Assembly (NCBI GenBank): GCA_015494465.1
Contig: WGBD01000002.1
Location: 67,683-131,682, forward strand
Reading direction: 5' to 3'
Origin: Candidatus Omnitrophota bacterium
Lineage (GTDB): Bacteria > Omnitrophota > Gorgyraeia > S143-82
DNA: 64,000 nucleotides
This document shows positions 11,436 to 62,808 of the stretch, piece after piece. Under the pieces are notes generated by a model that was not told the DNA's origin, did not search any database, and saw nothing but the letters and a program-made list of their open reading frames with translations. The translations under genes were made by a program, and so were the position numbers. How positions within the stretch are numbered: the stretch's first letter is position 1; each line of letters begins with the position of its first letter.

Positions 11436-11533
11436 ATGAGACAGATTCTTCCAGAAAGATCCCGTCTCATTTCTAATCCTCGACTGGGAAAATGGAGTTA
11501 TGAGACATTTTTTCCAGAAAGATTTCGTCTCAC
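11436..11533. repeat. Two imperfect 34-35 nt direct repeats, each an inverted repeat TGAGAC-N21-GTCTCA
   Basis: Copy 1 at 11436-11470: atgagacagattcttccagaaagatcccgtctcat. Copy 2 at 11500-11533: atgagacattttttccagaaagatttcgtctcac. Copy 2 overlaps the RND gene stop. Confidence 0.6.
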
Positions 11534-15487: not shown

Positions 15488-16805
15488 TCATCTCCCCCTT
15501 TACCTCGTCTATGCTTCCGCCTATCTCGTATTCTAGTCGGGCCATCGCCTGGGCCATCTCACACCTCGCTTCAGCTAAAGCCACCCGGGCATTACCCAGA
15601 GAAGTCCTGCTGGAGAGGACATCCAGATGACTGCTCTCCCCGGCGGCATACCTGTCCAAGGCTATCCTATAGGCCCGCTCTGCCTCGCAGACCGCATCCC
15701 TGTGCATCTTCACCCGGTCCAAGGCGGAGTAAAGGTCAACCAGTGCCTCGTGCACCCCCGCAAGGACCTCCTTCTTCACCCTGGAAAATCCTGCCCGGGC
15801 CTTCTTAAGAGATGCCTTGGCCAGATTATACCTTGCCCGATTCAGGAAGAAGTCCAACGAGAGACTGACCTTCAGCCAGGTCAACATATAGTCGTCGTAT
15901 TCAGGTCTACCGCGGGCAAAGGCCTGTCTGTCGTCTATGTGGTCCTCAAACTCCAGATACACCTTGGGCATAGACCTCCCGAAGGCGCTCTTCACCCCGT
16001 ACTCCCCGGCCCGCCACCGTTCCCTTGCGGAGAGAATAGCAGGCCGGTGGGCGAGGGCGTAATCCCTAAACAAAGTCTCCGGGGAAAGACCCTTCGGCTC
16101 CTCCGGGAGATCCCCCCTCAAACGGACCTCCACCTCCGGAGACAGCCCCAAGGCCAACTTAAGACGGGTATAACTGTCCTCCAAAACGGCCCTTGCCTGG
16201 CGCAGGTCACTTCGGGCCTCGGACACCGCCACCTTGCTCCGCAGGAGGTCGTATTCAGGGGCCAGTCCTTGGGAGAACCGCTCCTCCGTCACCCGTAAGG
16301 TCTCCTCCGCGAGATCTAGGAGTTCCTTGCGTATGCGCACAAGTTCCTCGGCAAACAGGCACTGATAGAAAAAGAAGCGCGCCTGATAGAGTAGAAATGC
16401 CTCCACCTCCTGCCTCGACCAACGGCTTGCCTTCAGCACTGCCTTCGCCTGTCGTATAGCGTTCTCCACCTCGCCACCGGAAAAGAGGAGTTGGGACAGC
16501 CTCAATGCCACCCCGCGATTGGACTCAAAGTCTATGAAGGGGTGATCTTTATACCGGTTGTAATAGGCATCCAGCGAAATCCGGGGGAGAAACTGCGCCA
16601 TTTCCAGATCCAGACTCGCTCGAGCCAGATCTTCCTGACTCCTTGACTGCGCAAGCCTGTCGCTGTTTCGCCGTATCAGCTTTAACAGATCCGCTTCCCT
16701 CAAGGTCAAAGCCCCCCTCTCACCCGCCACCAGCTGCGGGGCAACTCCGCTGACGAGAAAGAAAAATAAGAAAAGGAGCCTTATTATAGAAGAGGCCCTA
16801 CTCAT
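15471..16805 (-). CDS. TolC-family outer membrane efflux protein
   Basis: 444 aa with a signal peptide and the two-repeat coiled-coil/beta pattern typical of outer membrane factors. Confidence 0.75.
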   Translation of the reverse strand: MSRASSIIRLLFLFFFLVSGVAPQLVAGERGALTLREADLLKLIRRNSDRLAQSRSQEDLARASLDLEMAQFLPRISLDAYYNRYKDHPFIDFESNRGVALRLSQLLFSGGEVENAIRQAKAVLKASRWSRQEVEAFLLYQARFFFYQCLFAEELVRIRKELLDLAEETLRVTEERFSQGLAPEYDLLRSKVAVSEARSDLRQARAVLEDSYTRLKLALGLSPEVEVRLRGDLPEEPKGLSPETLFRDYALAHRPAILSARERWRAGEYGVKSAFGRSMPKVYLEFEDHIDDRQAFARGRPEYDDYMLTWLKVSLSLDFFLNRARYNLAKASLKKARAGFSRVKKEVLAGVHEALVDLYSALDRVKMHRDAVCEAERAYRIALDRYAAGESSHLDVLSSRTSLGNARVALAEARCEMAQAMARLEYEIGGSIDEVKGEMNGDAK

Positions 16806-17403
16806 CCTTTATCAACCCTCCCCGCAGGACATTCCAGACCAGATTCGCCTTTTTCCGGAAAGAATACCTCCAACCCTGATGCGGAGACAGCAAGACCACC
16901 CCGGTTATCATGGCCAGGAGGACATCCAGAATCTCCTCTATGGAACCGCCCAAATCCCTCAGTCTTCCCATCTCCCGTGCCCTTGCGAAGGTGGTCTTTA
17001 TACGGTCCAGTTCCTGATAGTAATTCTCCAAGTATATCTTTATAGACTGCCCCCGAAACTGGCTCTGATCGTGCACCAAAAGTTTCACCAGATGGGGATG
17101 CTCCTCAAAGAAGTTAAAGTAGGTAAATAGCGCCTCCCTTATCCGCAATACCGGATCTTCTATAGGATCCACCCGCGCGTGGATGGTCCTCCGCAACTCC
17201 TCCAAGCCGTGCCTTATTACCTCTACGAACAGCCCCTCTTTACTCCCGAAATACCTGTACACCGTCCCCTTGCCAAGGCCTGCCTCCTCCGCCACATCGT
17301 CCATCCGGGTATCCGCAAAGCCATAACGGGCAAACAACCTGCCGGCGACCTCCAGTATCCGTTTGCGCTTATCTCCGACCTTCACCTCTATATCACCCTC
17401 CAA
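16798..17403 (-). CDS. TetR/AcrR-family transcriptional regulator, first gene of the efflux operon
   Basis: N-terminal HTH RILEVAGRLFARYGFADTRMDDVAEEAGLGKGTVYRYF. Confidence 0.85.
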   Translation of the reverse strand: MEGDIEVKVGDKRKRILEVAGRLFARYGFADTRMDDVAEEAGLGKGTVYRYFGSKEGLFVEVIRHGLEELRRTIHARVDPIEDPVLRIREALFTYFNFFEEHPHLVKLLVHDQSQFRGQSIKIYLENYYQELDRIKTTFARAREMGRLRDLGGSIEEILDVLLAMITGVVLLSPHQGWRYSFRKKANLVWNVLRGGLIKDE

Positions 17404-34124: not shown

Positions 34125-35307
34125 AAGGTAGCCCCCACAGTTTTATGAAGCCTTCCGCTGCGGAGTGATCGAAGGTGTCGGATTCGTCGTAAGAGGCAAG
34201 GCTCTTCTTGTAGCGGGTGTAAGGGGACTTCCTCCCTACCACCTGGACCCAACCCGGACCTATCTTAAGCCTTACCACACCGCTGACCCTCTCCTGAGTG
34301 ACGTCCACGAACGCGCTCATCGCCCGGCGCAGGGGTGAATACCACAGGCCGTAATAGACCAGCTGGGCAAATCGATTGGCCATGTTGTCCTTGAAGAACA
34401 GGGTATCCCTATCCAGGACCAACATCTCCAATTCCCTGTGGGCAAGGTACAATATGTGACCTGCCGGTGCCTCGTAGACCTCACGGGACTTTATCCCTAC
34501 CAACCTATCCTCCACCATGTCTATCCTGCCCACGCCGTACTCTCCGCCTAGCTTGTTCAGTTCCTTGATAAGCGATTCGCCGGAAAGCCTTTTGCCATTG
34601 AGGGCAACGGGTATCCCCTTGCGAAATTCTATCTCCACATAGGTCGGGCTCTTCCTCACCTCTGCGGGGTCCTTGGTGATCTGGAAGGCATCCTTGGGTG
34701 GCTCCGCATAGGGATCCTCCAAGATACCGCACTCTATGCTCACCCCCCACAGATTCTCGTCTATGCTGTAGACCTTCTTCTTGCTGACATCTATGGGGAT
34801 ACCGTGGAGTCGGCAGTAATCCACCTCCTCTTCTCGGGAGCGAAACTCCCACTCCCTGACCGGGGCTATTATCTTCAACTTGGGATCCAGCATCCTGACC
34901 GCCAGCTCTATACGCACCTGATCGTTGCCCTTCCCCGTACATCCGTGGGCGACTGCAACTGCCCCTTCCTTGTGGGCCACCTCTACCAGGTACTTACCTA
35001 TGAGTGGCCTGCCCAGGGCGGTGGCGAGGTAATACTTCCCCTCGTAGACCGCCCCTGCCTTTAAGGTGGGCCAGATGAAGTCTTCTATGAACTCCTTGCG
35101 CAGGTTCTTCACATACAACTTGGTGGCCCCGGCAGCCTTTGCCCGCTTCCGGGCGATCTCGACATCCAAGGCCTGTCCCAGATCCGCCATAAAGCAGACC
35201 ACATCCCAGCCCCGATCCTTCAACCAGCGCACACAACAGGAGGTATCCAGGCCCCCCGAATAGGCCAAGACGACCTTCTTATTCTTCTTTCTCACGCTTT
35301 TTGCCAT
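34114..35307 (-). CDS. argG: Argininosuccinate synthase
   Basis: N-terminal PP-loop VVLAYSGGLDTS plus conserved ArgG blocks. 397 aa. Confidence 0.9.
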   Translation of the reverse strand: MAKSVRKKNKKVVLAYSGGLDTSCCVRWLKDRGWDVVCFMADLGQALDVEIARKRAKAAGATKLYVKNLRKEFIEDFIWPTLKAGAVYEGKYYLATALGRPLIGKYLVEVAHKEGAVAVAHGCTGKGNDQVRIELAVRMLDPKLKIIAPVREWEFRSREEEVDYCRLHGIPIDVSKKKVYSIDENLWGVSIECGILEDPYAEPPKDAFQITKDPAEVRKSPTYVEIEFRKGIPVALNGKRLSGESLIKELNKLGGEYGVGRIDMVEDRLVGIKSREVYEAPAGHILYLAHRELEMLVLDRDTLFFKDNMANRFAQLVYYGLWYSPLRRAMSAFVDVTQERVSGVVRLKIGPGWVQVVGRKSPYTRYKKSLASYDESDTFDHSAAEGFIKLWGLPFEG

Positions 35308-37498
35308 CCTCGTTACCTCCTATGGTCCTAGCGATTATATCATTCCAAAACCCGTGAGGATAGTTCTCGCAGTTTACCGCATCGGTCAACACGCAATTGA
35401 CGAATTCCGGATAGGGGATATTTGCCCCCTCAGCCTTGGAGTTGACGCTTCCTACCAGATAGGCCTTGGCATCTACTTTCTGGCCCAGATGGTATAGGGC
35501 AACCCCTTGATTGAAAAGGTTTATGTCCAGACGGTGGGCAAAGCGGAAGATCAACCGTTCCCAGTTGAGGGCCAATCGGTACTTTCCCTCTTCGTAGAGG
35601 TCCTCCGCATGCCTCCGAGCAAGGAACAGAACGGTGGAGAGGTAGACCGAGGGCATTCGCTCCAGGGCGCTGAGGGAACCGATGTAGGTGCGATAACCGT
35701 AGTGGTAATCGCTTTCCGCCAAGAGTATGGTATTCATGTGCTCGCTTACGCTGTCGTACCAGGCCTTGTGTACCTCCTTGGCGATCTCCAGGACCTTCTT
35801 GCACTCTTCTATGTGCCCGGTGTAAAGGAGGAACCTCAACATCACATCCTGGGTGTAGCGGAACAACACGAACTCCCGTTTAAACTTATCCCAATCGGGA
35901 TCGTGCCAACCCAGCTCTGGAGCAACGCCCTTTCTGACCAAGGCCACACCCCCGGTGTCCCAGTAGACGGGTCTCCAGTCAGGCTGATCCAGGAGCATCC
36001 ACAACAATCCCCAGTGGGTATAGGAGATAAGGGCGACATCCGCCTCCTTTAGCACCTCCTGGATGGGGATGCCCATCTTCTCGTACCGGCCGGTGCTCAT
36101 GTTGTAATAATCCATAAAGTGCTTGCCCATACGGGTATCGATGAAGACCTTGAACTTGGGATAGCCCTTCAACATAACATAGGAACCCACTCCGTAGCTG
36201 TTGATCATCTTGTAAGGGCCACCCGGGAGGTTCTTCTTCAAGAACTCCAGCTCCCGCACCGGCACCCAAGGCCCGTCGCCCACATAGGTGTAACTGGGGA
36301 TCCGTTCTACGCACCCCACCAACAGGAAGTAGATAAAAATCACCGAGACGAGTTCCATCAGGTACCACCAAAGAGTCTTCCACTTCAGCCCTCTGAGCCA
36401 ATAGGTCAAAGAGAAGGCAGAGAAAACCCCAAAGGTGTAGGTGAACCTACCGAACGACAAGGACAGCTTCGCAAATACCAATCCCAGCACCAGTAGGTCC
36501 CAGGGACATGACCTTAAGGCCTCGAAAAGGGAATCCTTATCTCGAGATTCCCAATACCGCCTCAATCCTGGATAGGCCAACGCCCCGAAGACGACGACTA
36601 TGGAGATCAGGCCAAAGAGAAATCCCAAGAAGTACATGCTGTTCAGGTTCGGCTTCAAGGGGGAAAAGGCCATTATGTGCTTCGCACTCTCTGCCAAAGG
36701 CTCGTTGGGCCCAAGGCCGATTATTTTCAGCAGGGCCTTGCCCACGAACTTGGAGGCGATAAACCTGGCATAGAACAGGGGCTTGGGAGTAATGAACAAG
36801 GCGACAGAAGAAAGTACCCACATCAGGAACAAGTGCTTTCCCAGTCTGCGATTACCGTTCAGGAAGAACTCCACGAAGGCCATGAGAAGGATCGTCCCCC
36901 AACCGATGACCACTGCGATGTGGGAATTGGCCCAGATCAAGGTGATGAGGGGAATAGACCACAGGAGCTTTAGTCGTCCCGTGAGCTTAGCGAAGTAATA
37001 GACGAAGACGAGGGCGGAAAACAGAGGTGCGGAAAACATGTCCGCCTTCAGCATCATCCCGTTTCTGCTCAGCATCAACATCAACAGGAGTAGATAGAGA
37101 AAGGTGATCCGAATACTGGACCTGGCTTCGTAGGCCAAGACGAAGAGAAGGATACCCATGAAGAACAACAACAAGATCCTCAAGGAATATATGTAGGTGA
37201 GCTCCTCTCCTCCCAGTTTGTACAAGAGATAAAAGCTCACCTGGGGAATCCAAGCGGGGTACAGTCCCACATCCGAGTAGTGGACCCAGGTGAAGTCGTT
37301 CTCGTCTACTCTCAAGCTCTTGTGTCTCAGGATCTCCTTCCCGTAGGCAGTGTGGAAGTAGATGTCCCCGTCTATCGTGGCATTAGAATACAACAGGATC
37401 AAGGCTATAAAGGACAAAGCCACCAAACAGGCAAAGGCCACCTTTTGAAACAACGAGAGAAGATTAGCGTCTTTCCACATTGCTATTCGCATCTGCAT
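35279..37498 (-). CDS. Large polytopic membrane protein, putative GT-C-fold (PMT/ArnT-like) glycosyltransferase
   Basis: 739 aa with ~11-13 TM helices and a first-loop acidic motif IDGDIYFHTAYGKE resembling the DE/DxD loop-1 motif of GT-C enzymes. The soluble C-terminal domain is large. Confidence 0.4.
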   Translation of the reverse strand: MQMRIAMWKDANLLSLFQKVAFACLVALSFIALILLYSNATIDGDIYFHTAYGKEILRHKSLRVDENDFTWVHYSDVGLYPAWIPQVSFYLLYKLGGEELTYIYSLRILLLFFMGILLFVLAYEARSSIRITFLYLLLLMLMLSRNGMMLKADMFSAPLFSALVFVYYFAKLTGRLKLLWSIPLITLIWANSHIAVVIGWGTILLMAFVEFFLNGNRRLGKHLFLMWVLSSVALFITPKPLFYARFIASKFVGKALLKIIGLGPNEPLAESAKHIMAFSPLKPNLNSMYFLGFLFGLISIVVVFGALAYPGLRRYWESRDKDSLFEALRSCPWDLLVLGLVFAKLSLSFGRFTYTFGVFSAFSLTYWLRGLKWKTLWWYLMELVSVIFIYFLLVGCVERIPSYTYVGDGPWVPVRELEFLKKNLPGGPYKMINSYGVGSYVMLKGYPKFKVFIDTRMGKHFMDYYNMSTGRYEKMGIPIQEVLKEADVALISYTHWGLLWMLLDQPDWRPVYWDTGGVALVRKGVAPELGWHDPDWDKFKREFVLFRYTQDVMLRFLLYTGHIEECKKVLEIAKEVHKAWYDSVSEHMNTILLAESDYHYGYRTYIGSLSALERMPSVYLSTVLFLARRHAEDLYEEGKYRLALNWERLIFRFAHRLDINLFNQGVALYHLGQKVDAKAYLVGSVNSKAEGANIPYPEFVNCVLTDAVNCENYPHGFWNDIIARTIGGNEDGKKREKEE

Positions 37499-41145: not shown

Positions 41146-42375
41146 TTATACCACCTCAATCCGCCCATAGACACCATCATATCCGGGCCGGACCTTCACC
41201 TTGCCTTGTCTCATCGAAACGATTGCCTTTTGCAGGTCCCTATCCACGAACCGCTCCAGTTCCCTTTCGGGGAGGAATACCAAGAGAGACAGTTCGTCCC
41301 GTCGAGACACCAAGCGGATGTACTCCTCCCTAACCGCCTTGCTCTGCCGACCCCTCCCCCTCACCTGGGAGATGACCTCTATCAGAGGGATCGTCCTCTG
41401 GTATCCGATCTCTCTGCGCCCCTCTTCAGGTCCCTTACGATCCGCAAGCTTCCTGACCCTATGTAACACCCCAAGGGTCAGTTTCTTACCGCAAACCGGA
41501 CAGAGATTCCCCAACCGCTCAGCCTCCTCAGGGGGCAAAACCACCCCGCAGGACCGGTGCCCGTCGTAATGGTATTTGCCCTCTTCGGGAAAGAACTCCA
41601 CGGTAAAGGCAAACCTTTGGGCATCCCCCTTTTCCAATACCTCCCGCAGGGCAAAGAAGTCGAGGGCATCCTGGAAGACACTCGCCTCCCTGCCCAAGGC
41701 AAGGGGAGAGTGGGCGTCGGAGTTGGAGACCAAGGCAAGGCGATCCAGATCGGATAGACACCAGTTCATCGGTGGATCCGAGGAAAGCCCCGTCTCTATC
41801 GCCACTACATTCGGCGGGAGTCCATTGGGGAAGGCCTGGGACAGGGAATCGAAACCCGAACGACTCCCAAAGACCGCATACCACGGCGTCCAGGCGTGGG
41901 CCAGGATCAGGAAACACTCCGGGACGACTCGATGCAACATCCAGGCCATCTCGTCCACATCCAGACGGAGCGTGGGCCTCCCGTCCGCCCGGAGAGTCCC
42001 AAAAGGTGCCAAGGACTGCCTCAGCCTCTCAACGCAGTCGAAGTCAGGGCAATAGAGAAGGGTGTGGACGCGGTAGGTCCTGCCCTCCCGGGAAAAGACA
42101 TTGCTCACCTCTCCACCCAAGACGAATTCCACCCCACCGTAATACCACAGCCCCCTCTTGCTGGCAGGCCGGAGTTTTCGCCTCAAGAGGTCCAACCAGT
42201 CAGGATGGGTGATGTCCGCGGTTGCCAGGAGGTCTATCCCTTTTAGGTGGGCCCAGCGGGAGAGGGATTCCAGATCCATCTCCTTGCTGGTGGCCAGGGA
42301 GAAGGGGGAATGGATGTGCAGGTCAGCGACGAAGTACCCCATACCAATCCCTGACAACGGAAAGGACCTGCTCAA
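41146..42375 (-). CDS. PHP-domain protein, endonuclease Q-like (TIGR00375-like) with C-terminal zinc ribbon
   Basis: N-terminal ADLHIHSPFS PHP motif and C-terminal CPVCGKKLTLG. Confidence 0.5.
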   Translation of the reverse strand: MSRSFPLSGIGMGYFVADLHIHSPFSLATSKEMDLESLSRWAHLKGIDLLATADITHPDWLDLLRRKLRPASKRGLWYYGGVEFVLGGEVSNVFSREGRTYRVHTLLYCPDFDCVERLRQSLAPFGTLRADGRPTLRLDVDEMAWMLHRVVPECFLILAHAWTPWYAVFGSRSGFDSLSQAFPNGLPPNVVAIETGLSSDPPMNWCLSDLDRLALVSNSDAHSPLALGREASVFQDALDFFALREVLEKGDAQRFAFTVEFFPEEGKYHYDGHRSCGVVLPPEEAERLGNLCPVCGKKLTLGVLHRVRKLADRKGPEEGRREIGYQRTIPLIEVISQVRGRGRQSKAVREEYIRLVSRRDELSLLVFLPERELERFVDRDLQKAIVSMRQGKVKVRPGYDGVYGRIEVV

Positions 42376-51842: not shown

Positions 51843-52521
51843 TTCGAACGATGGTTGCCCCCTCCTCCACCGCTATCTCGAAGTCGTTGCTGGTGCCCAT
51901 AGACAACTCGGGAAGGGAAAACTCCTCTGCCAAGGAGCGTAATTGAGAGAAGACCCTGCGCAATAGATTCTCATCAGAGCTATAAGGGGCCATCGTCATC
52001 AAACCCACGCACTCCAGATGGGGACAATCCCTGCGAATGAAGTCTATGGCCTCTGCAAGTTCGCCTCTGGTGCGAAAACCCCACTTGCTGGCCTCTCCGC
52101 TGACATTTACCTCTAGGAGGCACCTCACCTTCAGACCATGCGCCTCCGCCCGCCTCTCTAACGCAGACACCAATCGCAACGAATCAACGGAATGTATCAA
52201 TTGAAAGGGAAGGGAGAGGAATTTATTTATCTTATTGCGTTGGAGGTGGCCTATAAAGTGCCACTCTATATCCAGATCGGCCAACTCGCTTATCTTCTTT
52301 TCTGCAGACTGGATGTGATTCTCGCCAAAACAGCGCAGGCCTATCTCGTAAAGGGTGCGCATAAAGGCGGTATCCATATACTTCGAAGCAACCACCACCT
52401 TCGGGAAATCCGTGCGACCTGCCCTCTCAAGGGCTCGCAAGATGCGACCCCTGACTTCTTCCCACCTCCGGGAAAGCCTCGCTTTCAAATCCATAGCCCT
52501 TAGGCAACAGGGGGCTGACAA
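51820..52521 (-). CDS. YggS-family PLP-binding (PLP homeostasis) protein
   Basis: VVASKY...GENHIQ and TMAP blocks. 233 aa. Confidence 0.8.
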   Translation of the reverse strand: MSAPCCLRAMDLKARLSRRWEEVRGRILRALERAGRTDFPKVVVASKYMDTAFMRTLYEIGLRCFGENHIQSAEKKISELADLDIEWHFIGHLQRNKINKFLSLPFQLIHSVDSLRLVSALERRAEAHGLKVRCLLEVNVSGEASKWGFRTRGELAEAIDFIRRDCPHLECVGLMTMAPYSSDENLLRRVFSQLRSLAEEFSLPELSMGTSNDFEIAVEEGATIVRIGSVFLE

Positions 52522-53534
52522 GAGTTTCTTATCACCAACTCGGTGTGAAGATAAACCTTGTGGGGAGTAACATGGGACATGTAAAGGTGTCTACCCTTCT
52601 TATTCTCTATGATCCGATGGAGTTCCTCCACCGCCTCCCGGGCCATCTCCAGTAAGGGCTGTTTTACGGTGGTAAGGGGAACAGGACTCTGGACAGCGGA
52701 AGGGCTGTCATCGAACCCCACTATAGAGACATCCCTGGGGACATTTATTCCGTGCTCCCGCAAGGTGTAGACGACTTCCAAGGCCATCTCGTCGCTGGCC
52801 ACGAATATGGCGGTCGGCCTATCCTTTAACCTCAAGAGTTTCTCGGTAGCCAACCTTGCAGATAACCTGGAGAAGTCCCCTTCTTGTATGTACTCTGGAC
52901 GCACCTCTATCCCTGCCTTCAACAGGGTCTCTTTGTATCCTGTTAACCTATCGCTTGCCGCCTGCGTGCGTAGATCTCCAGTGATGTGGGCGATCTTACG
53001 GTGTCCAAGGGAGATCAGGTATTCCACCGCTTCCCTGGCTCCGCCTCGGTTATCTATTGCAAAGCAGTCGACGGGAATGTCTTCCACGACATTGTTTATT
53101 ACCACCGTCGGGATGCGCCTCTCTACGGTGTGTTTTAAACACTCGTACTGGTAAAGGACATCTGCAAAGATGACTCCACCCGCAGCGATTGGCAGGTCGG
53201 TCCTCTCCCGCGTGGCCACATACAACAACAGGTCAAGACCAAGGGCATCGCAGGCCATACCCACTCCCCGCAATATCTCCACCGCGTAGAAGGAATAGAA
53301 TAATCCCTCGTAATGGGGAATCACCACTGCTATCGTCCTGGTCTTACCACCTGCAAGTCGCTGAGCGCTTATGTTGGGATAGTACTTAAGATCCTTTATC
53401 GCCTGCTCTACCTTTTTCCTGGTCTCAGGTCGGACATTAGGATGATTGTTTATGACTCGGGAAACCGTAGCGGGAGAGACCCCGGCATACTTTGCGACAT
53501 CGAATATGTTTACGGATCCTTTCATGGTGGGCAA
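52500..53534 (-). CDS. LacI-family transcriptional regulator
   Basis: N-terminal HTH IFDVAKYAGVSPATVSRVINN and a periplasmic-binding-protein-like effector domain. Confidence 0.85.
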   Translation of the reverse strand: MPTMKGSVNIFDVAKYAGVSPATVSRVINNHPNVRPETRKKVEQAIKDLKYYPNISAQRLAGGKTRTIAVVIPHYEGLFYSFYAVEILRGVGMACDALGLDLLLYVATRERTDLPIAAGGVIFADVLYQYECLKHTVERRIPTVVINNVVEDIPVDCFAIDNRGGAREAVEYLISLGHRKIAHITGDLRTQAASDRLTGYKETLLKAGIEVRPEYIQEGDFSRLSARLATEKLLRLKDRPTAIFVASDEMALEVVYTLREHGINVPRDVSIVGFDDSPSAVQSPVPLTTVKQPLLEMAREAVEELHRIIENKKGRHLYMSHVTPHKVYLHTELVIRNSCQPPVA

Positions 53535-53548
53535 CCAGGTTCGATAAT

Positions 53549-56500
53549 CTAATCCGTCAACAACGCATCTCCCTCGGGGTCTATTATAGATGCGGTGACG
53601 AAGATGAGCAAGTTCCTTCTGTTCACCACATCCGACTGCTTGCGGAAGAGATTACCCAAGATCGGCAGGTCTCCCAAGAGCGGGACCTTGGTAAGGGTCT
53701 TATTCCGGGTCTCCTTTATCAGGCCACCCAACACGACGGTATCCGTATTCTCCACTACCACATTGGTACTAAGATTCCTGGAAGTAAATTTCGGTAACTT
53801 AACTCCTCCGGTATATTGGAAGTAGTCCGCCACCGCATCACTGACCTCGGGAAGCAAGCTCAAGGAGATCGTCTTCATGTCTTCTCCCACACTCGGAGTA
53901 ACCCTCAAGATTATCCCCACATCCCGCTTCACGAAATCGGTGGGGACATTCTCGTACCGGGTCTCTCCGGCGTCGTCGTAATCCCCATCACCGTTGAGAT
54001 CAAACTGCACTATCTGGAATTCGTAGCGCGTGGGATAAATCCACTCGTCAACGACTTTTATCGTAGCGGTCTGGTTGTTAAGTGTGGTCACCCGAGGAGA
54101 GGAAAGCGTGCGCGTCTTTTGGCTCTGGCTTAAGGCGTGCAATACCGCCTCAAACTGGGGCTTGGTCAATACGCCTTTATAGGTCAGATTCAATCCCGAA
54201 GAGGCGTTACTAAATTCTGGATAGGAAAATCCACTATCCTTGGCTACACCGTGCTTGAAGTTGCTTCCTCGGGCATCTACCGCCCAGTCCTCGTTGGCGA
54301 TCTTCCAGTGAACACCCAGTTCCTTTAGGTCGTTAACATCTACCTCCAGGAACTTAGCCTCGATAAGGACCTGTACCGGCGTGATGTCCAAATTCCAGAG
54401 TATCTCGTCTATTTTCTTTATGTTTGCTGGGGTATTGGTCACTATGAGGGTACCACTGCGCTCGTCCAGGACGAGTTTGCTCCCCGAAGGCCAATCTACT
54501 GCCTCCTGTATTACATCCTTAAGGCTCTTCACCTCGCTGACCTGGGCGCCACTGCCCAACTCTACACTGCCTGCGGTGGTGTCACTAAACTTGCTGTAGA
54601 GTCCTATCCCCTTGCTGAGCCGATATATCTTCGTCTCCATCGGCTCCTTCTCCAGTTGATCAGGCGTAGTAATCCAAACCGCATCGTCGTCTATCTGATA
54701 GGTAAGATTGTAAGAGCGCAAGAGGTACTTAAGGGCCGACTCCAATGGCATGTCGGCAATGTCTATCGTCACCTTGTAATCCTGAGATAGCACGGATGCG
54801 GATGGGATGATGTTTACACCGGTCTGCTTGGCAAAGAACCTCAAGACATCGATCAAGGAAACATCTTCGAATTTAGCAGTGATCTTCTGTTGGAGTTTCT
54901 TCTTGATAGGCGGAAGATTTATCAAACGGCGTCGCTGAGTCTTCTTCCTCTTTTTGATTTCAACTGGCACGAGGCCATTCTTCATTACCTCCTTCACCAT
55001 CTTCTTGTCCTGCTCTTCTAATTTTTCTTGGAGCTCGCGCTTCTCTTGGGCATACAATTTCTCTTTCAAGGCAAACAGCCGTGTCTTCGCCTTCTCGTCG
55101 TTGGGGAAGAGGAAGAGTATGTTTTCGTAGACCGCTATCGCGGACTTGTACTTACCCGCCTTCTCAAAGGTCTCTGCATCGTCGTACAGTTTCTCTACAA
55201 TCTTGTTCTTTAATTCTTCGGTCTCCTTCTGGCGGTTTAGTTCCTGGATCTCCTTCTCCCTTTCCTTGATGAGATCCAAGTATTCCCGGGCATAGGGCGT
55301 ATAGTAAGAGACCTTCAACTCCTTTTCCTTTGCACACACCTTCTGGAAGAGCTCCCTTGCCTTGAAGTAGTCTCCTTCGTCGTAGGCCTGCTTGGCAGAC
55401 TCGTACAGCTTCCGCACATCCTCAGTGCTTTCCTGAGCAGATACTCTGGCATCTAGTAATTTCTTCTCCCTTTCCAATATGCCCTTGGCCTTTTCCACGA
55501 GCCTTACTGCCTCTTTATTGTCAGGATCTATGTCTACCACCTTCTGGGCCAGCTCTAACACCCGTGAGTAATCTCCCTCGTAAAGGGCCTTCTTGGCCTC
55601 CTCCAACATACCCGAGATGAGCTTCTTCTTCTCCCGGGCATCCTTTGCCACCTTATCGTTGCTGGCCAGCCTTAAGGAACTCAACTTCTTGTCGATCCAC
55701 TCCCTTCGCTTGGCCTTCTCTTTCTCGATCCGCCTGGCCAGGCGCTCCGCCCTCTTCTCCAAGCTGGACAATCTCTTCTTCGCTTTACGAGAAAGCGGGG
55801 AAGAGGAAAGTTTCGCCAATTCCTCCTCCAGGACGGAGAACTTAGACCAGTCCTTCTCTGCAAGTCCTAATAAGTGCTCCAAGGAATCTAGCTTCTTTTC
55901 CTCTTCCTCTTCTTGTTGGGCCTTTGCCAACAACCAAAGCTCCCGATCCAAGGCCTTTTCCAATTGGCTCAACCCCTTACTCATCAACGCAGAGCGAGCA
56001 AAGACCTCCTCTTCTAACCCCTTAAGGGTCCTCTCTCTGGCCCGGGCTATCCTCCTCTCCCTTTCCGCTTTCTCCCTTGCCAGGCGCTCCAACTCCTGGG
56101 CCCGTTTCCTTATGGCTATCCTCTTCCACTTGCGCGCCGGGCGATTATCGGGATCCAACTTAAACACCTCTTTCACCAATCCCAAGGCCCTCTCGTAATC
56201 CCCTCCGTCAACCGCACCTCTTATCGAGGCAATCAATCCCGATATCATCGCCTTCTTCTCTTCTTCCGCCTTTCTCTCCAGCCACTGCTCCAGTTTCCTC
56301 TCTAGCAGTTCCGACTGCCTACGCAGGGTCTCGGCCTTCTCCCTGACCGCCCTTTTCTGGGCCTTTAAGGTCCAATCGTGGAGTCTGGCCAAGCGCCTCA
56401 ATTCTCGCTCTCGGCGACGCTTCTCGCGAATCAACTCCCTCTTCTCCTTTCGCTGAGAGGCAGTCTTCGTTGAACGGGCCACCTTGGTCGCAGAAGGGGT

Positions 56501-59500
56501 CTTTTCACTCCTAGCCTTAACCGCGCGCCTCTCCTCTTTGGGAGGTTGGACCTCCGCCTCCTTGGGTTCCGGCCTTTTGGCCACCTTTTCGGTGGGCCCC
56601 CTCTTCTCCACCTCTTTAGACAAAGATCCCTCCTGGGCAGGGACTCCTTTGGTTTTCTCCTGTCTCTTCTCTATCTCTTCCTGCATCAGGAGGATGAGGT
56701 CCAAGAGGTCCCTTGCGGGCTGATTCGTAGGATCGTACTCTAGGACCTTCTGACAAAGGGCAATGGCCCTGTCGAACCTCTGCTCGTCCATAAGCCTGCG
56801 GGCCTGCAACAGCATGCTGTTTATGTCTGCCTTGATCAAGCGAGCGCTTTGAGTATATCCCAAGCGCTGGTGTCTTACTTCCTGCAGGGCAGAGTAGGCC
56901 TTACGCCTCTTGGCGGCCTCTTCTTCTATCTGACGAAGGAGGCTCTTGCGCCTGAGTATCTCGCTCTGCCACCTGGCCTTTGCCCTACGATAAAGCTCCC
57001 ACAGCTGTCGATTCTTGGAGTCGAGTTTGAGGCCCTCCTTGGCCAACTTCACTGCGCTCTCGTAGTCCCCCGCCTCAAGGGCCTTTATTCCCCTTTCCAG
57101 CTTCAGGTCCGCATAATAAAGGGCCTCCGCCTTCTCGATCTGCCTCAAGAACTCCTTAGCCTGCTCGTTCTTGGGATCTATGTTCTTAAGGATGTCTTTC
57201 ACCACTATCTTCGCGCTCAAGAAGTCACCGCTTTCCAAGTATATCCTCGCGGTCTTGAGGGCCTGCCGGACCTTGAAAAACTTCAATCGCCGGTCCAGTT
57301 CTTCCATTACCTTTCGGACCTCTTTCTTTCTACCAGGAGCTATGGCCTTGGCTAACTCCAATTCCTTCCTAGCGGTCTCGAAATCGTAGACCTTGAGGGC
57401 GCTCCGGGCCAGTTCCAGGTGTTTGTAGAAATCCCGCTCTTTCTCCTTCCTCACCAACTCCTTAAACAGCCTCTTGACCCGGGATTGATACTCTTTAGGA
57501 GCGTTCTTCAAGGCCTCCAAAAGATTGCGAGCGGAGACTAGATCCGCCTCGTCCAGGTAGCGAGATACCATCTTAAGCGCAGTCTCGTAATAATCCTTGC
57601 GGTACGCCTCCTGGGCCGAATCTATGGCTCGATCCAACCTAGGATCCACTCGAAGGCCTTCTGCCCTCTTGCGCACCTCCTTTTCTAGCTGGGACAAGGT
57701 CCATCGATGTATCTGGGACAACCGCCTCTCTTCCTTCTCAACATCCTTTAGTCTGGTGCGAATCTTGTCCACCCAATCCCTAAACCTGGATTCGTTAGGA
57801 AAGTCCTGCCTAGCCTTGGTAGCTATCCTAAGGGCCTCCCGCAGGGAATCTGCGTCTCCCTTCTTCCAAAGCTTCTGGATCCTATCCAGGTAGGGCTTGG
57901 CCAACAAAAAGGATATCTCTCTCCGCAAGCTCAAGAGGTCCTGCTTTTTTTCCGGGTAAGAGCGAATAAGCCGGTCCAGTTCTTCCTTCGCTAGGAGGTA
58001 CTCCTTGTTCTCGATGTACCCATTGACCTTCTCCACAGCCTCAGCGAAGGCCTTCTCTCTCTTGGCCTTCCGCACCCGGGAGAGGTAATCCGCTATCTCT
58101 CTATCCTCGGGATAGAGACGGATAAGACGCACCAACGACTCCTCGGCCTTCTCCAGGTTGCCCTCGTCTATCAACTTCTTTACCTCTGCGAGCTTGCCCT
58201 CTATGTACTCCCGCTGACGCCTCTTGGCTTCCTGCTCTAATCTGGCCATAGACTCTTTGACCCTCTGAGAATAATCCGGTAGGGGAGGGAGGGTCTCCTT
58301 CTCGACCGGTGAGATCTTGGACTCAGATCCTGGAGAGCCCCCTTCCTGGGAGACCGTCTCTTCCTCTTTCGCCTTCAGATCCCTGTCCACCAAGGCCAGT
58401 TTCTTGAGCTCCTTGGCAGGCTTAAAACCAGGATCCAAGGCCAGGACCTTCTCGCAGAGGGAGATCGCCTGATCGTAGTCCCCAGAAAAGTAGGCATCCT
58501 GGGCCTTAAAGAATAGATCCAACCTCTTCCTTTTCTTCTCCTCCTCCAACCTTAGCCTGGCCTCTTCCTCCTTAAGCCTTTGCCTGGCCTCCGCAAGCAA
58601 GACCTCCGCCTGTCGGGCGTACTTTCCCCCCAACTTATCCAGATCTATCACCTGAGAAAGATACGAAATCGCGGATCGGTAATTCCCGCGCCTGAGCTCC
58701 TTCTTGCCCTTGGCCAACAGCCTCTTTATCTTGCGATAATCCACCCTCTTAGAGGGCTCGAGGGTTTTGCTTACATGCCTTGGTTCTCCCTCCGAGGCAG
58801 GTCCCACAGGGCTTCCTTCCTCTACCGCTGGAACGGAAGGTTTATTGGACTCCACCACCCTCTGGACCTCTTTGGCCAAACCACTCTGAGATAGGGTCTC
58901 ACTCTTAAGTCTCTCTTCTATCTGCTTGAGCTCTTCTTCTAAAGATTCCCGCAGTTTCAGCTCCTGGAGTAACTTCTGCCTCAGACGCCTCTCCTCTTCC
59001 GTCAATTCCTCCTCGCGGGTATTCAGATCCAGCACCTTATCCCAGGAGATCTCCTCCCCTGTGCGAGTAGAAAAGGAGACCGCCAACCTTCTCTCCAGTA
59101 AGAAGATCTCCTCGTTTATTCGGGCCAGCTCGGACTGAAGTCGCAACCTCTCCGCAGAGAGCTTATCCACCAGGGCACTTTGGTCCTTTATCCTCTCCTC
59201 TAACTCCCGGACGCGACGCTCTTTCTCCTCCAAGTACTTCTTGAGCAGGGCATCCTCACGGGCCTTTATGTTGGAAAGGGTCTGGAAGTAATCCAAGAGC
59301 TGATTCTGCAGGGCCAAGAGGGCACCTTTCAACTTGGTAGTCAGCAACTGCGGATCCGTTATGCCAAGCTCCTCACTGCTTTTCCCCTCTTCAACGACGG
59401 GAACCTCAACAGGCCGTTCCAACTTTGCCCGGGCCCGTTCTAGGTACCTACGAGCGTATTGATGATTGGGCACATACTTCAACACCTCTTCGAAGAGCCG

Positions 59501-59839
59501 GACTGCCTCTTCGTAATCCCCTCTCAGAAACGCAGACTTTGCCTTGGTGTACAAATCCTCTATCTGGGGAGTGGAAGAGGCCAATGAGGACTTGGCCATA
59601 GCAACCTCTATTTCCGACAGATAGCGCTTGGCCTCGTTATTGTTGGGATTCTCTTTCAAGGCGAGTTCGAATAAGGCCTTTGCCCGTACCAAGTCCCCTC
59701 GGTTAAAGTAGTCCTTGGCTTTAGATAGATACTCCTGCTCCTGAGATGACAACCGGGTCTCGGTGGCCTGTAATCGGTAGGGAAAAGAGACGAAAAGGGC
59801 CGAAAACAAGAGGAGAGGAATTAAGGACCTAATCTTCAC
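53549..59839 (-). CDS. pilQ: Giant (2096 aa) secretin. A signal peptide is followed by ~1650 aa of TPR-like repeats interleaved with highly charged coiled coil, then an N0-N1-secretin (PilQ/GspD-type) C-terminal module.
   Basis: C-terminal secretin signature VVLGGLIKETRNKTLTKVPLLGDLPILGNLFRKQSDVVNRRNLLIFVTASII. N0-like DVLRFFAKQTGVNIIPSASV...ALKYLLRSYNLTY. At least 12 TPR-like units of pattern A..Y..GDY..A...F..VL.LDP.N..A. It lies directly downstream of the pilMN/O/P genes. Confidence 0.8.
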   Translation of the reverse strand: MKIRSLIPLLLFSALFVSFPYRLQATETRLSSQEQEYLSKAKDYFNRGDLVRAKALFELALKENPNNNEAKRYLSEIEVAMAKSSLASSTPQIEDLYTKAKSAFLRGDYEEAVRLFEEVLKYVPNHQYARRYLERARAKLERPVEVPVVEEGKSSEELGITDPQLLTTKLKGALLALQNQLLDYFQTLSNIKAREDALLKKYLEEKERRVRELEERIKDQSALVDKLSAERLRLQSELARINEEIFLLERRLAVSFSTRTGEEISWDKVLDLNTREEELTEEERRLRQKLLQELKLRESLEEELKQIEERLKSETLSQSGLAKEVQRVVESNKPSVPAVEEGSPVGPASEGEPRHVSKTLEPSKRVDYRKIKRLLAKGKKELRRGNYRSAISYLSQVIDLDKLGGKYARQAEVLLAEARQRLKEEEARLRLEEEKKRKRLDLFFKAQDAYFSGDYDQAISLCEKVLALDPGFKPAKELKKLALVDRDLKAKEEETVSQEGGSPGSESKISPVEKETLPPLPDYSQRVKESMARLEQEAKRRQREYIEGKLAEVKKLIDEGNLEKAEESLVRLIRLYPEDREIADYLSRVRKAKREKAFAEAVEKVNGYIENKEYLLAKEELDRLIRSYPEKKQDLLSLRREISFLLAKPYLDRIQKLWKKGDADSLREALRIATKARQDFPNESRFRDWVDKIRTRLKDVEKEERRLSQIHRWTLSQLEKEVRKRAEGLRVDPRLDRAIDSAQEAYRKDYYETALKMVSRYLDEADLVSARNLLEALKNAPKEYQSRVKRLFKELVRKEKERDFYKHLELARSALKVYDFETARKELELAKAIAPGRKKEVRKVMEELDRRLKFFKVRQALKTARIYLESGDFLSAKIVVKDILKNIDPKNEQAKEFLRQIEKAEALYYADLKLERGIKALEAGDYESAVKLAKEGLKLDSKNRQLWELYRRAKARWQSEILRRKSLLRQIEEEAAKRRKAYSALQEVRHQRLGYTQSARLIKADINSMLLQARRLMDEQRFDRAIALCQKVLEYDPTNQPARDLLDLILLMQEEIEKRQEKTKGVPAQEGSLSKEVEKRGPTEKVAKRPEPKEAEVQPPKEERRAVKARSEKTPSATKVARSTKTASQRKEKRELIREKRRRERELRRLARLHDWTLKAQKRAVREKAETLRRQSELLERKLEQWLERKAEEEKKAMISGLIASIRGAVDGGDYERALGLVKEVFKLDPDNRPARKWKRIAIRKRAQELERLAREKAERERRIARARERTLKGLEEEVFARSALMSKGLSQLEKALDRELWLLAKAQQEEEEEKKLDSLEHLLGLAEKDWSKFSVLEEELAKLSSSPLSRKAKKRLSSLEKRAERLARRIEKEKAKRREWIDKKLSSLRLASNDKVAKDAREKKKLISGMLEEAKKALYEGDYSRVLELAQKVVDIDPDNKEAVRLVEKAKGILEREKKLLDARVSAQESTEDVRKLYESAKQAYDEGDYFKARELFQKVCAKEKELKVSYYTPYAREYLDLIKEREKEIQELNRQKETEELKNKIVEKLYDDAETFEKAGKYKSAIAVYENILFLFPNDEKAKTRLFALKEKLYAQEKRELQEKLEEQDKKMVKEVMKNGLVPVEIKKRKKTQRRRLINLPPIKKKLQQKITAKFEDVSLIDVLRFFAKQTGVNIIPSASVLSQDYKVTIDIADMPLESALKYLLRSYNLTYQIDDDAVWITTPDQLEKEPMETKIYRLSKGIGLYSKFSDTTAGSVELGSGAQVSEVKSLKDVIQEAVDWPSGSKLVLDERSGTLIVTNTPANIKKIDEILWNLDITPVQVLIEAKFLEVDVNDLKELGVHWKIANEDWAVDARGSNFKHGVAKDSGFSYPEFSNASSGLNLTYKGVLTKPQFEAVLHALSQSQKTRTLSSPRVTTLNNQTATIKVVDEWIYPTRYEFQIVQFDLNGDGDYDDAGETRYENVPTDFVKRDVGIILRVTPSVGEDMKTISLSLLPEVSDAVADYFQYTGGVKLPKFTSRNLSTNVVVENTDTVVLGGLIKETRNKTLTKVPLLGDLPILGNLFRKQSDVVNRRNLLIFVTASIIDPEGDALLTD

Positions 59840-60344
59840 CTAAACCCCCCGCTTTTTTTAATGTAATTAAAGACAGTCCCCCTTTTTTAGATAATACAAC
59901 CGCATCTTCCGTGATGTCAAGGAGCTTATATCCCCCGATAAATTCCCCTAATTTCAGAAAGTGATCCTTTTTATCTTCACTGGAGTATATGATGGCTATC
60001 TTTTCCTCACCCCAAATCATCATCCCTTTATAAGAGAACGGCAGGGATGCCTGTTTGTGCACCTGCTTCACCTCCTCGTCTACGGCCATTGAGACATTTA
60101 CCTCCAGAGCTGGTGGGAAAAACGGTTCCCTTTTGGGAAGCCGGAACAACGCCTCGTCTAGACGGGGCAGGGAATACTCGCCGGGTTCATAGGCGCAGTT
60201 GAACTCCACCTGGGGTAGGGGCAGACGAGCAGAGTGCCACACCAAGATCCCCAATCCCAAAACGATCAAGAACTCTACCAAGAATAAACTATTGATCAAT
60301 GTCCGGGACTGCATTTCCTCTTTCTCCCCCTTGTCCCCCACCAA
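59829..60344 (-). CDS. pilP: PilP-like pilus assembly protein (single N-terminal TM/anchor plus C-terminal beta domain)
   Basis: C-terminal YKGMMIWGEEKIAIIYSSEDKKDHFLKLGEFIGGYKLLDITEDAVVL resembles the PilP/GspC HR domain. Position is between pilO-like and pilQ. Confidence 0.5.
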   Translation of the reverse strand: MVGDKGEKEEMQSRTLINSLFLVEFLIVLGLGILVWHSARLPLPQVEFNCAYEPGEYSLPRLDEALFRLPKREPFFPPALEVNVSMAVDEEVKQVHKQASLPFSYKGMMIWGEEKIAIIYSSEDKKDHFLKLGEFIGGYKLLDITEDAVVLSKKGGLSLITLKKAGGLGED

Positions 60345-61023
60345 GATCGTAATAAGGTAAAAACCGCATCTTTACCAACAGCAACCGGGCCTCCTCGTCT
60401 TGGGAAGTAATATCTTCGGAATCGATTGGGAAGACAGGATCCTTAAGAAGCTCTTTGTAGACATCCATCAGGGCCGCCATCGGCAAAACCATATCCAATT
60501 CCAAGGGATAGCGATCCTCACTCGACAGGCCCATCCGCACATTGGAAAGGTAGCCACCTCCTGCGTACAAAGCTGGTAAGATCCTTTCCATGAGTTTTAA
60601 GTGGTAAAAGAGGTAAACTATGTCTTGATTTTCCGGCAGTTGATCTGGGAATCCCAGGTTTTCGGGAATAGGTTGACCGGGATACCTTCCTTTTACGCCC
60701 TTCTCCAAGTCCTTTACCTTCTCCATAAGGGTTAGGGCAGGAGACTGATACCCCTCAATCTCCTTTTTTAATCTCTGAAGGACACCTACCCTGCGCTTAC
60801 ACTGCTCTATGGCAGAGCCTAGCTGGCGGAGATCCGCACGCATCCTAGAGGTAATGTCCTGGGGCGCACAGCCCCGAAGCTCTTCCTTTATCTGGTATAC
60901 CTCAGTAAGGAGCCTGGAGAAAGCTTCCCGTTTCTGGGTATAAAAAAACCACTCCAGACCAACCAACAAGATCAACGAGGCCAAGACTGCGTGCAATGGC
61001 CAGAAAACCCGAGTATTCACCAC
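60289..61023 (-). CDS. pilO: PilO-like inner-membrane pilus alignment protein (TM plus coiled coil plus periplasmic domain)
   Basis: N-terminal TM (FWPLHAVLASLILLVGL), a coiled-coil segment, then an alpha/beta domain. Operon position supports the call. Confidence 0.45.
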   Translation of the reverse strand: MVNTRVFWPLHAVLASLILLVGLEWFFYTQKREAFSRLLTEVYQIKEELRGCAPQDITSRMRADLRQLGSAIEQCKRRVGVLQRLKKEIEGYQSPALTLMEKVKDLEKGVKGRYPGQPIPENLGFPDQLPENQDIVYLFYHLKLMERILPALYAGGGYLSNVRMGLSSEDRYPLELDMVLPMAALMDVYKELLKDPVFPIDSEDITSQDEEARLLLVKMRFLPYYDLGGGQGGERGNAVPDIDQ

Positions 61024-62502: not shown

Positions 62503-62808
62503 ATTGCCCTGCTGATAGAGTAATAAGCCGAGTTCTGTCTGGGCGGTCATCCATCTGCGCGGGGGATCGCTCCCCCGCTCTAGCGGCCAACCCGAGGGCA
62601 ATGCCCGGGCCAGGCAACCCTCCTACTTGGCCTTGCTGCGGGTAGAGATTACCCTGTGGGGGGATAGAACCCACCACGGGCTCTTATCCTGCCCGCGGGG
62701 AAGATCCCACGCGGACGGTGGGTGTTACCCACTACCCTGCCCTCTGCAGCTCGGACTTTCCTCCCGTCCTTGAGGACAGGCGACCGCCTTACTCTATCAG
62801 CAGGGCAA
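62503..62808 (-). ncRNA. rnpB: RNase P RNA (bacterial type A, compact ~306 nt)
   Basis: Minus strand contains GGAAAGTCCGAGCTGCAGAGGGCA (P4 5' strand) and ACAGAACTCGGCTTA (P4 3' strand). The P1 helix forms by GCCCTGCTGATAGAGTAAG pairing with CTTATTACTCTATCAGCAGGGC. The ORFs overlapping it are spurious. Confidence 0.8.

Follow-up and report, generated by a model that had tools for sequence, protein, structure and literature searches.

A giant secretin fused to a helical tetratricopeptide-repeat array in Candidatus Omnitrophota, a probable PilQ equivalent of a type IVa-like pilus

Why should an outer-membrane secretin carry some 1600 residues of helical sequence in front of an ordinary channel module? 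The question is raised by a 64,000-nucleotide stretch of a Candidatus Omnitrophota genome (GenBank assembly GCA_015494465.1, contig WGBD01000002.1, positions 67,683 to 131,682; hereafter the window), whose minus strand encodes a secretin of 2096 amino acids (aa). Pili and secretion systems have secretins as their gates in the outer membrane; the targeting, anchoring and bracing of these proteins have been studied mostly in Proteobacteria. We read the gene, with a probability of about 0.6, as the PilQ-equivalent secretin of a type IVa-like pilus. It would belong to the PilQ type that is fused to tetratricopeptide repeats (TPRs) and would surround the base of the secretin with a large scaffold or anchor in the periplasm. 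The bacterium comes from an uncultivated phylum, whose type IVa pili are believed to serve in attachment to host or prey cells (PMC10066038).

The metagenome-derived source made it necessary to check whether a misassembly, or a missed stop or frameshift, had fused a separate TPR protein with a PilQ of normal size. Nothing was found in favor of such an artefact. The single open frame contains no stop within 6291 nt, and an identical 2096-aa protein (P0121), encoded on a contig of 559 kb, is on record at NCBI and ENA. Giant orthologs of 2093, 2130, 2150, 2200, 2283 and 2330/2332 aa were found, and the loci that we fetched show the same synteny across independent assemblies, namely NCBI metagenome-assembled genomes, one ENA assembly and two Logan runs. 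Six giants are 41–55% identical overall and collinear across ~1860–2060 aligned positions. Their conserved N-terminal blocks lie at aa 200–240, 800–1040 (the best conserved, with 53–66% identity) and 1480–1600, and the indels fall mostly in linkers and in aa 1081–1400. In a comparison with an 89%-identical ortholog (locus L009), the ratio of nonsynonymous to synonymous substitution rates (dN/dS) is 0.082 for the whole gene at a dS of 0.74, 0.093 for aa 27–1640 and 0.018 for the C-terminal secretin module. All segments stay below 0.4, with a maximum of 0.36 in the linker aa 1066–1130, and the alignment holds only five gap columns, each in a Pro/Gly-rich stretch. As the orthologs are collinear, the synteny is kept and dN/dS is low, we consider the N-terminal region to be translated and under selection, and by these comparisons the giant secretin is a genuine gene. 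The original prediction of one intact gene is borne out by the uninterrupted frame, the agreement of independent assemblies and the purifying selection, while the probability of an artefact is negligible.

The same prediction had placed an N0–N1–secretin module in the C-terminal ~445 aa, and Pfam, AlphaFold2 (AF2) models, Foldseek and phmmer against the PDB agree with it. Pfam Secretin (PF00263) matches aa 1902–2087 over the full length of the model with 136.8 bits against a cut-off of 27.5. STN (N0) matches aa 1676–1724 with 29.2 bits against a cut-off of 28.4, FecR_C matches aa 1657–1723 within the N0 region, and Secretin_N (N1) matches aa 1770–1819 with 24.2 bits, slightly under its cut-off of 28.2. 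The AF2 model of aa 1080–2096 (predicted local distance difference test score, pLDDT, 71.6; predicted template modeling score, pTM, 0.34) contains N0, one N1 domain and a long-stranded secretin barrel. The top Foldseek match of this model in the PDB is the PilQ of Vibrio cholerae (6w6m, E 5e-18), and the secretin matches as a whole (PilQ, GspD and InvG) range from E 1e-18 to 1e-9. By sequence, the closest PDB entries in phmmer are the PilQs of Neisseria (4av2/9sh1) and V. cholerae (6w6m), aligned from N0 to the C-terminus. A Secretin domain above threshold, with N0 and at least one N1-type domain upstream, places the protein in the secretin superfamily.

Within the superfamily, the best-scoring NCBIfam model is NF042912, the Amuc_1098 family of type IV pilus secretins, with 235.1 bits against a cut-off of 750. 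The type II secretion system (T2SS) GspD model TIGR02517 reaches 209.7 bits against 351.35, matching only model positions 282–596, and the type IVa pilus PilQ model TIGR02515 reaches 176.1 bits, under its cut-off of 284.35. The N0–N1–N2–N3 order of GspD was not found; both Pfam and AF2 indicate a single N1-type domain. The AMIN domain (PF11741) gave no match at E≤0.01 anywhere in the protein, and the region before N0 is all-helical in AF2.

The ~1600 aa that follow the signal peptide consist of TPR-like units and long helices. The signal peptide, MKIRSLIPLLLFSALFVSFPYRLQA, was judged by eye to be of the Sec/signal peptidase I type, with cleavage between SFPYRLQA and TE and no lipobox Cys. AF2 (the model above together with one of aa 1–1100, pLDDT 76, pTM 0.30) predicts no beta structure upstream of aa 1650 and assigns 80% of aa 27–1640 to helix, and E, K and R together make up 37% of the N-terminal region. 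While a whole-protein self-BLAST returned nothing, windowed BLAST followed by a hidden Markov model (HMM) iterated from the protein's own repeats identified a TPR-like unit of 41 aa that occurs 12 times and has the consensus ..AK.AY..GDY..A..L..KVL..DP.N. The cumulative Pfam TPR signal over the whole protein is strong (TPR_2 E 4e-31, TPR_19 E 6e-25) despite per-stretch counts that are mostly 0–2, and the AF2 secondary structure contains ~17 short helices (~14 aa) that mark TPR-like hairpins. The earlier count of at least 12 units is confirmed by both numbers, and the three peptides quoted for it lie at aa 41–74, 446–478 and 1415–1448.

Most of the units are single, paired or ~50 aa apart (aa 523–1060), with one helix of each hairpin lengthened. 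The array of aa 523–1060 is regular, with a period of ~50 residues (a long helix of ~32 aa and a short one of ~14 aa), unlike the 34-residue period of canonical TPRs. Eleven helices have at least 40 aa, and the longest have 98, 97, 86 and 75 aa. Five low-confidence Pro/Gly-rich linkers in the AF2 models interrupt the array at aa 143–162, 333–363, 496–520, 1060–1125 and 1622–1642. The long helices are 22–34% hydrophobic and 36–59% charged, and several have a significant hydrophobic periodicity of 3.5–3.6 residues. From this hydrophobic content and periodicity we take the long helices to be amphipathic, so that they probably pack against something and are not ER/K single alpha-helices. A reading of the helices as single alpha-helix spacers, prompted by the JGI name 'trichohyalin', was considered and rejected, as a heuristic found no ER/K single alpha-helix and the periodicity is amphipathic. 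The original description of TPRs with long coiled-coil spacers therefore holds for the TPR-like units and the long helices; coiled coil is plausible, but a strict heptad filter, itself a crude heuristic, marks canonical coiled coil only at aa 187–250. Foldseek and phmmer searches of the N-terminus against the PDB returned generic or designed TPRs only and no specific relative. The BamD model TIGR03302 matches weakly (45.5 bits against a cut-off of 81.4), and no NCBIfam pilotin model (PilW/PilF) matches at E≤0.01.

An inspection of the genes around the secretin indicated a possible pilus operon. Upstream lie, in turn, a PilP-like gene, a gene at the position of pilO and a divergent PilM/PilN-like fusion (Table 1), compared here with L004, the pilus operon of another long secretin. 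The 171-aa PilP-like gene runs 11 nt into the secretin gene, its stop overlapping the GTG start, which is preceded by a Shine-Dalgarno-like run, GGGGGG. At related loci, Pfam PilM_2/PilN matches stand beside the secretin, and the locus of an 824-aa standard relative adds T2SSF (PilC-like) and N_methyl pilin genes. The conserved gene order runs from a CT398-like zinc-ribbon protein through RNase H and the ~480-aa, ~240-aa and ~165-aa genes to the giant secretin, a LacI-family regulator and YggS. Given the PilM/N- and PilP-like neighbors and the pilus genes at the relatives' loci, we assign the locus to a type IVa-like pilus, as its pilMN-pilO-pilP-pilQ operon, in which the secretin gene is translationally coupled to the PilP-like gene. 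The LacI-family regulator may be co-transcribed with the secretin. Type IVa pili have been reported as a frequent trait of Omnitrophota (PMC10066038).

Is the fusion itself exceptional? The original prediction saw no described secretin class in this architecture, which is not sustained. TPR-secretin fusions are standard among the Omnitrophota relatives, have been published for Amuc_1098 of Akkermansia (PMC4960237) and are curated as NF042912. In a word-indexed search with the C-terminal 496 aa, the best 120 matches are mostly of 780–870 aa, and many have Pfam TPR matches and names such as 'tetratricopeptide repeat protein' and 'secretin CpaC/TPR repeat protein'. No protein above 870 aa was listed by this search, which failed to return any giant, the identical protein included, and thus gives a biased picture of lengths; very long proteins seem to be at a disadvantage when its candidates are selected. 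An exhaustive phmmer scan of the same 496 aa against 1.84 billion cluster representatives, which corrects the bias, gave 1052 matches below 1e-30. The closest ~35 representatives have lengths of 719–905, 1033, 1038, 1138, 1162, 1290, 1469, 1632 and 2093–2330 aa, with N-terminal parts of ~280 to ~1830 aa across the family, and the long ones that were checked start with Met and a signal-peptide-like segment. In the relatives, the own-repeat HMM detects 0–4 units. The named close relatives, as well as three GTDB genomes with relatives, are all labeled Candidatus Omnitrophota.

In a neighbor-joining tree of the C-terminal module, whose deep nodes are weakly supported, the 2093–2332-aa proteins form one clade with 100% bootstrap. 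A second long clade of P0127 (2020 aa) and P0144 (1632 aa), also with 100% bootstrap, lies elsewhere, and proteins of intermediate length are scattered over the tree. The N-terminus of P0127 can be aligned to the window protein only over the last ~250 aa before N0. There are at least two long clades, which probably arose by independent expansions. The unit at aa 1470–1525 of the giant, with a YYTPYAREYLD motif, corresponds to the first TPR unit (YFTPFAEIY) of the ~830-aa relatives. Most of the extra sequence, ~1250–1440 aa, therefore lies between the signal peptide and the ancestral N-terminus. Judged from these alignments, TPR-secretin fusion is the norm in Candidatus Omnitrophota, one lineage has enlarged the helical front end about five-fold (~350 to ~1600 aa), and the window secretin is near the upper size end of a family with a very plastic N-terminus. 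In the literature on Omnitrophota secretins, Planctomycetes TPR proteins and secretins, and fused TPR-PilQ proteins, we found no description of giant TPR secretins. What is new here is the extreme size and the lineage-specific giant clade; the TPR-PilQ architecture itself is not categorically new.

Other very long secretins with differing N-termini (P0130, P0131, P0133–P0137) were also seen, as was a fusion of another kind. P0130 (1968 aa) combines AMIN, STN, Secretin_N and Secretin. In P0133 (1917 aa, Gemmataceae) and the related P0135 (1960 aa) the C-terminal Secretin is the sole recognizable domain, and P0136 (1766 aa) carries the JGI name 'GspD/TPR repeat protein'. P0128 (L010:5001-12221, GCA_030154545.1) is a 2406-aa protein of ~1950 aa of TPR followed by an OEP/TolC-like domain, encoded just upstream of genes for a membrane fusion protein (MFP) and AcrB. 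By its domain content, secretins are not the only outer-membrane channels that carry a giant periplasmic TPR array.

We propose that the protein is exported by Sec and that its C-terminus assembles into the usual 12–15-mer channel, in which N0 would dock to the PilP-like protein, and that the N-terminal arrays stay behind in the periplasm. At ~190 kDa per protomer, 12–15 of them would add up to 2–3 MDa per complex, arranged as a broad helical skirt or a spoke-like scaffold around and beside the secretin base. The TPR grooves and amphipathic helices could serve self-association and docking to envelope partners. Such a scaffold would act in assembly as a pilotin does and would also anchor the machine and spread its load, a task of AMIN domains, TsaP and FimV in other systems. 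It would leave the length of the channel unchanged.

That last point bears on the idea, part of the original prediction, that a rod of ~1600 aa acts as a ruler bridging an unusually wide periplasm or an extra, toga-like envelope layer. The many long helices, of which the longest (98 aa) would measure ~15 nm if straight, agree with it, as do the existence of other long secretins (the Gemmataceae and other metagenome proteins P0133–P0137) and the variation of length in the family, which could track envelope geometry. The solved secretin structures have N0 as the ring closest to the inner membrane, in contact with PilP or GspC, and the AMIN domains that precede N0 are folded back in the direction of the peptidoglycan. 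Since the extension is N-terminal of N0 rather than between N0 and the gate, it should not be able to lengthen the conduit. Thermus PilQ, by contrast, has added ring domains between N0 and the barrel, a place taken by a single N1 domain in the window secretin. The PilP-, PilO- and PilMN-like partners are of ordinary size, and five disordered linkers interrupt the supposed rod. The window also encodes a TolC-like protein, an MFP and an AcrB of normal size (444, 294 and 1027 aa); the fixed geometry of these components speaks for a periplasm of ordinary width. A wide-periplasm ruler is thus disfavored, and we hold it to be distinctly unlikely. A built-in pilotin, with the TPR array used only for targeting and oligomerization like PilF, PilW, Tgl or TadD and without a later structural role, is another reading. 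The self-piloting logic has already been proposed for the TPR-secretin fusion Amuc_1098 (PMC4960237), and the weak BamD-like similarity and the missing AMIN domain fit it. Known pilotins, however, are lipoproteins, while the window protein was found by eye to lack a lipobox and has no PilW/PilF match at the threshold given above. A few TPRs (0–4 detectable units) suffice in the relatives, and this reading leaves unaccounted for ~1250 extra residues that are under purifying selection (dN/dS 0.09) and collinear at 41–55% identity. The self-piloting part of the original prediction is already published, and as a full explanation of the array it seems unlikely to us.

A secretin without a pilus, either T2SS-like or engaged in polymer (slime or exopolysaccharide) export, where the TPR array would guide the polymer through the periplasm in the manner of BcsC, PgaA and PelB, should also be considered. 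The GspD model outscores the PilQ model (209.7 against 176.1 bits), and the 171-aa protein encoded upstream matches the HR domain of GspC. A TPR array with an outer-membrane channel is the design of synthase-dependent exopolysaccharide exporters, and the giant TPR-TolC fusion P0128 shows that the combination exists at this size. Secretins have been reported as slime nozzles (PMC12475490). Against this, the best NCBIfam model is the type IV pilus family of Amuc_1098 and the best PDB matches are PilQs. The neighbors are PilM/PilN-like and not GspC/L/M-like, the ortholog loci carry PilM_2/PilN and, in one case, also a pilin and T2SSF, and no glycosyltransferase or synthase gene is adjacent. We regard a non-pilus function as very unlikely.

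Several observations weigh against our own preference for a pilus secretin with a lateral scaffold. Every secretin-family HMM scores beneath its curated equivalog cut-off, so that the type IV pilus assignment comes from the genomic context and the ranking of the best hits. The context in turn consists of weak pairwise matches to L004 and weak NCBIfam matches; the 244-aa gene is assigned to PilO by position only, and no pilin, PilB, PilC or PilT gene occurs within the window. The TPR region resembles generic and designed TPRs and no pilotin, BamD (a match below cut-off) or other specific family. With a pTM of only 0.30–0.34, the AF2 models do not fix the tertiary arrangement. The scaffold also does not explain how the relatives manage with an N-terminus of ~350 aa. 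The lateral scaffold or anchor is the step that we infer for a region that matches only generic or designed TPRs.

A bolder form of the scaffold proposal would have the 12–15 helical arrays build a megadalton periplasmic cage or spoke-wheel that replaces AMIN, TsaP, FimV and the pilotin in one polypeptide. Its size would be evolvable, repeatedly expanded in Omnitrophota and tuned either to force-bearing in host or prey attachment or to envelope geometry. We consider this form doubtful; if it were true, none of the characterized type IV pilus machines is known to possess a structural element of this kind.

Table 1 Features of the giant secretin gene, its operon and the remainder of the window.
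Feature	Position in window	Strand	Basis and remarks
TPR-fused PilQ-type secretin (probable), whole gene	53549..59839	-	2096 aa, GTG start, stop codon included
Putative signal peptide, aa 1-25	59765..59839	-	Read from sequence by eye; low pLDDT at aa 1-30
First pair of TPR-like units, aa 30-141	59417..59752	-	Own HMM at aa 30 and 88; Pfam TPR_2 at aa 95-126; AF2 helices 31-141; dN/dS 0.043
Two long amphipathic helices (98 and 50 aa), aa 163-330	58850..59353	-	Sole clear heptad stretch at aa 187-250; block 200-240 is 63% identical in giants
Second TPR-like pair, joined by a 46-aa helix, aa 367-496	58352..58741	-	Own HMM, AF2
Regular helical array, ~9 long/short hairpins, aa 523-1060	56660..58273	-	AF2; HMM units at aa 543, 741, 856, 914 and 1001; dN/dS 0.069
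Disordered K/E/P-rich linker, aa 1061-1125	56465..56659	-	pLDDT <50; dN/dS 0.36; ortholog indel site; most variable part
Very long helices (86 and 97 aa) and ~5 TPR-like units, aa 1126-1621	54977..56464	-	Own HMM, AF2
N0 (STN) domain, aa 1644-1730	54650..54910	-	Pfam STN and FecR_C; AF2 beta-alpha-beta; aligns to PilQ N0 of 4av2/9sh1
N1 (Secretin_N) ring-building domain, aa 1735-1820	54380..54637	-	Pfam below cut-off; AF2 fold; Foldseek PilQ match
Secretin beta-barrel/gate domain, aa 1823-2096	53549..54373	-	Pfam 136.8 bits; giants 89-96% identical
PilP-like gene, 171 aa	59829..60344	-	Weak GspC HR-domain match (PilP fold); 31% identity, E 3e-11, to L004 positional counterpart
244-aa gene at PilO position	60289..61023	-	No family match; weak match (E 0.002) to L004 counterpart; position kept in L001, L005 and L009
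Divergent PilM/PilN-like fusion, 475 aa	61028..62455	-	Weak Amuc_1101 PilM-like NCBIfam match; 22% identity, E 1e-5, to L004 PilM_2 and PilN protein
Bacterial RNase P RNA	62509-62799	-	196 bits; directly upstream of PilM/N-like gene, downstream of RNase H
LacI-family regulator	52500-53534	-	15 nt downstream of secretin stop; same place in 3/3 fetched giant-clade loci (L001, L005, L009)
Resistance-nodulation-division (RND) efflux operon	11530-17403	-	TetR regulator, OEP/TolC-like 444 aa, HlyD-type MFP 294 aa, AcrB 1027 aa; complete, ordinary-sized
ComEC-like 'Competence' protein	976-2403	-	PF03772, E 8e-35; only other DNA-uptake or pilus-related gene seen in window
739-aa open reading frame, no Pfam match at E≤1e-5	35279-37498	-	
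409-aa open reading frame, no Pfam match at E≤1e-5	41146-42375	-	

The order of the protein-coding genes that flank the RNase P RNA site is kept in the giant-clade loci L001, L005 and L009. Apart from the ComEC-like gene and the RND efflux operon, the remaining genes of the window are housekeeping genes. Near the 2130-aa ortholog P0126 (L001:1-4332) we observed genes for flagellin, FliW, CsrA, a ParA/MipZ-like ATPase and a MamF_MmsF-family protein. These genes hint at flagella in the giant-secretin lineage and perhaps at a kinship with magnetotactic Omnitrophota.

The family shows a solution to targeting and bracing other than that of the Proteobacteria, in that a fused helical TPR array appears to replace AMIN domains and the separate pilotin. 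The length of the array varies about six-fold among close relatives, and the giants, as natural extremes, could reveal whether its job is assembly, anchoring or load-spreading. Size and length range should be notable to secretin specialists. The practical benefit, too, is modest but real: public databases list such proteins without a name or under a wrong one ('trichohyalin').

Among known systems, the nearest relatives of the window protein are other TPR-fused PilQs. By domain architecture, this type is known in Omnitrophota and Verrucomicrobia, both of which belong to the PVC (Planctomycetes–Verrucomicrobia–Chlamydiae) group, and it is exemplified by Amuc_1098. The Akkermansia protein has 907 aa with an N-terminal BamD-like domain of three TPRs 'resembling the pilotin proteins' (PMC4960237). 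It shares with the window protein the N-terminal TPR region fused to a C-terminal secretin and a PilM-like neighbor, of the Amuc_1101 family that the 475-aa protein weakly matches. Its three TPRs, however, compare with ~17 TPR-like hairpins and long helices in a protein of 2096 aa, and at 235 against 750 bits the two are not equivalogs. The standard Omnitrophota TPR-secretins of ~780–870 aa (for example P0014, MDD5005098.1, a 'tetratricopeptide repeat protein') are closer. Their N0–N1–secretin module is 50–58% identical, their N-terminus is likewise made of TPR units, E/K-rich helices and the YFTPFAEIY unit, and their operon is pilMN-(O/P)-Q; only the N-terminus is far shorter, ~350 aa against ~1640 aa. 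The classical type IVa PilQs of Neisseria (4av2/9sh1), V. cholerae (6w6m), P. aeruginosa (6ve2) and M. xanthus (3jc8) have the same N0–N1–secretin order and, as far as the weak matches of the window genes go, a similar pilMNOP context, but they carry beta-sandwich AMIN domains before N0 where the window protein has its helical TPR array. PilF, PilW, Tgl, TadD and BamD are likewise TPR proteins that act on the assembly of secretins or other outer-membrane proteins, with the weak BamD similarity as a link. They are separate lipoproteins of ~250 aa, whereas the TPRs here are fused, lack a lipobox and PilW/PilF similarity and extend about six times longer.

More distant are two systems that offer analogies. 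In BcsC, PgaA and PelB, a single polypeptide begins with a long TPR array in the periplasm and has its outer-membrane channel at the C-terminus. Their channel is a monomeric beta-barrel porin and their 34-aa TPRs are contiguous, unlike the hairpins spaced by 30–98-aa helices found here, and no sequence match to them came up when the N-terminus was compared with the PDB by phmmer. In the flagellar motor of C. jejuni, PflA and PflB form a periplasmic spoke-and-rim scaffold of TPR proteins (PMC11870540). Both are long TPR proteins of the periplasm, and the scaffold they make is wide and encircles an envelope-spanning machine, as proposed for the giant secretin; 9hmf_K is among the Foldseek matches. 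They are, however, separate proteins of a flagellar motor, and the similarity is that of TPRs in general (TM <0.1). As analogies, then, the PflA/PflB scaffold would be the nearest in structure to the array proposed here, and BcsC, PgaA and PelB the nearest in design.

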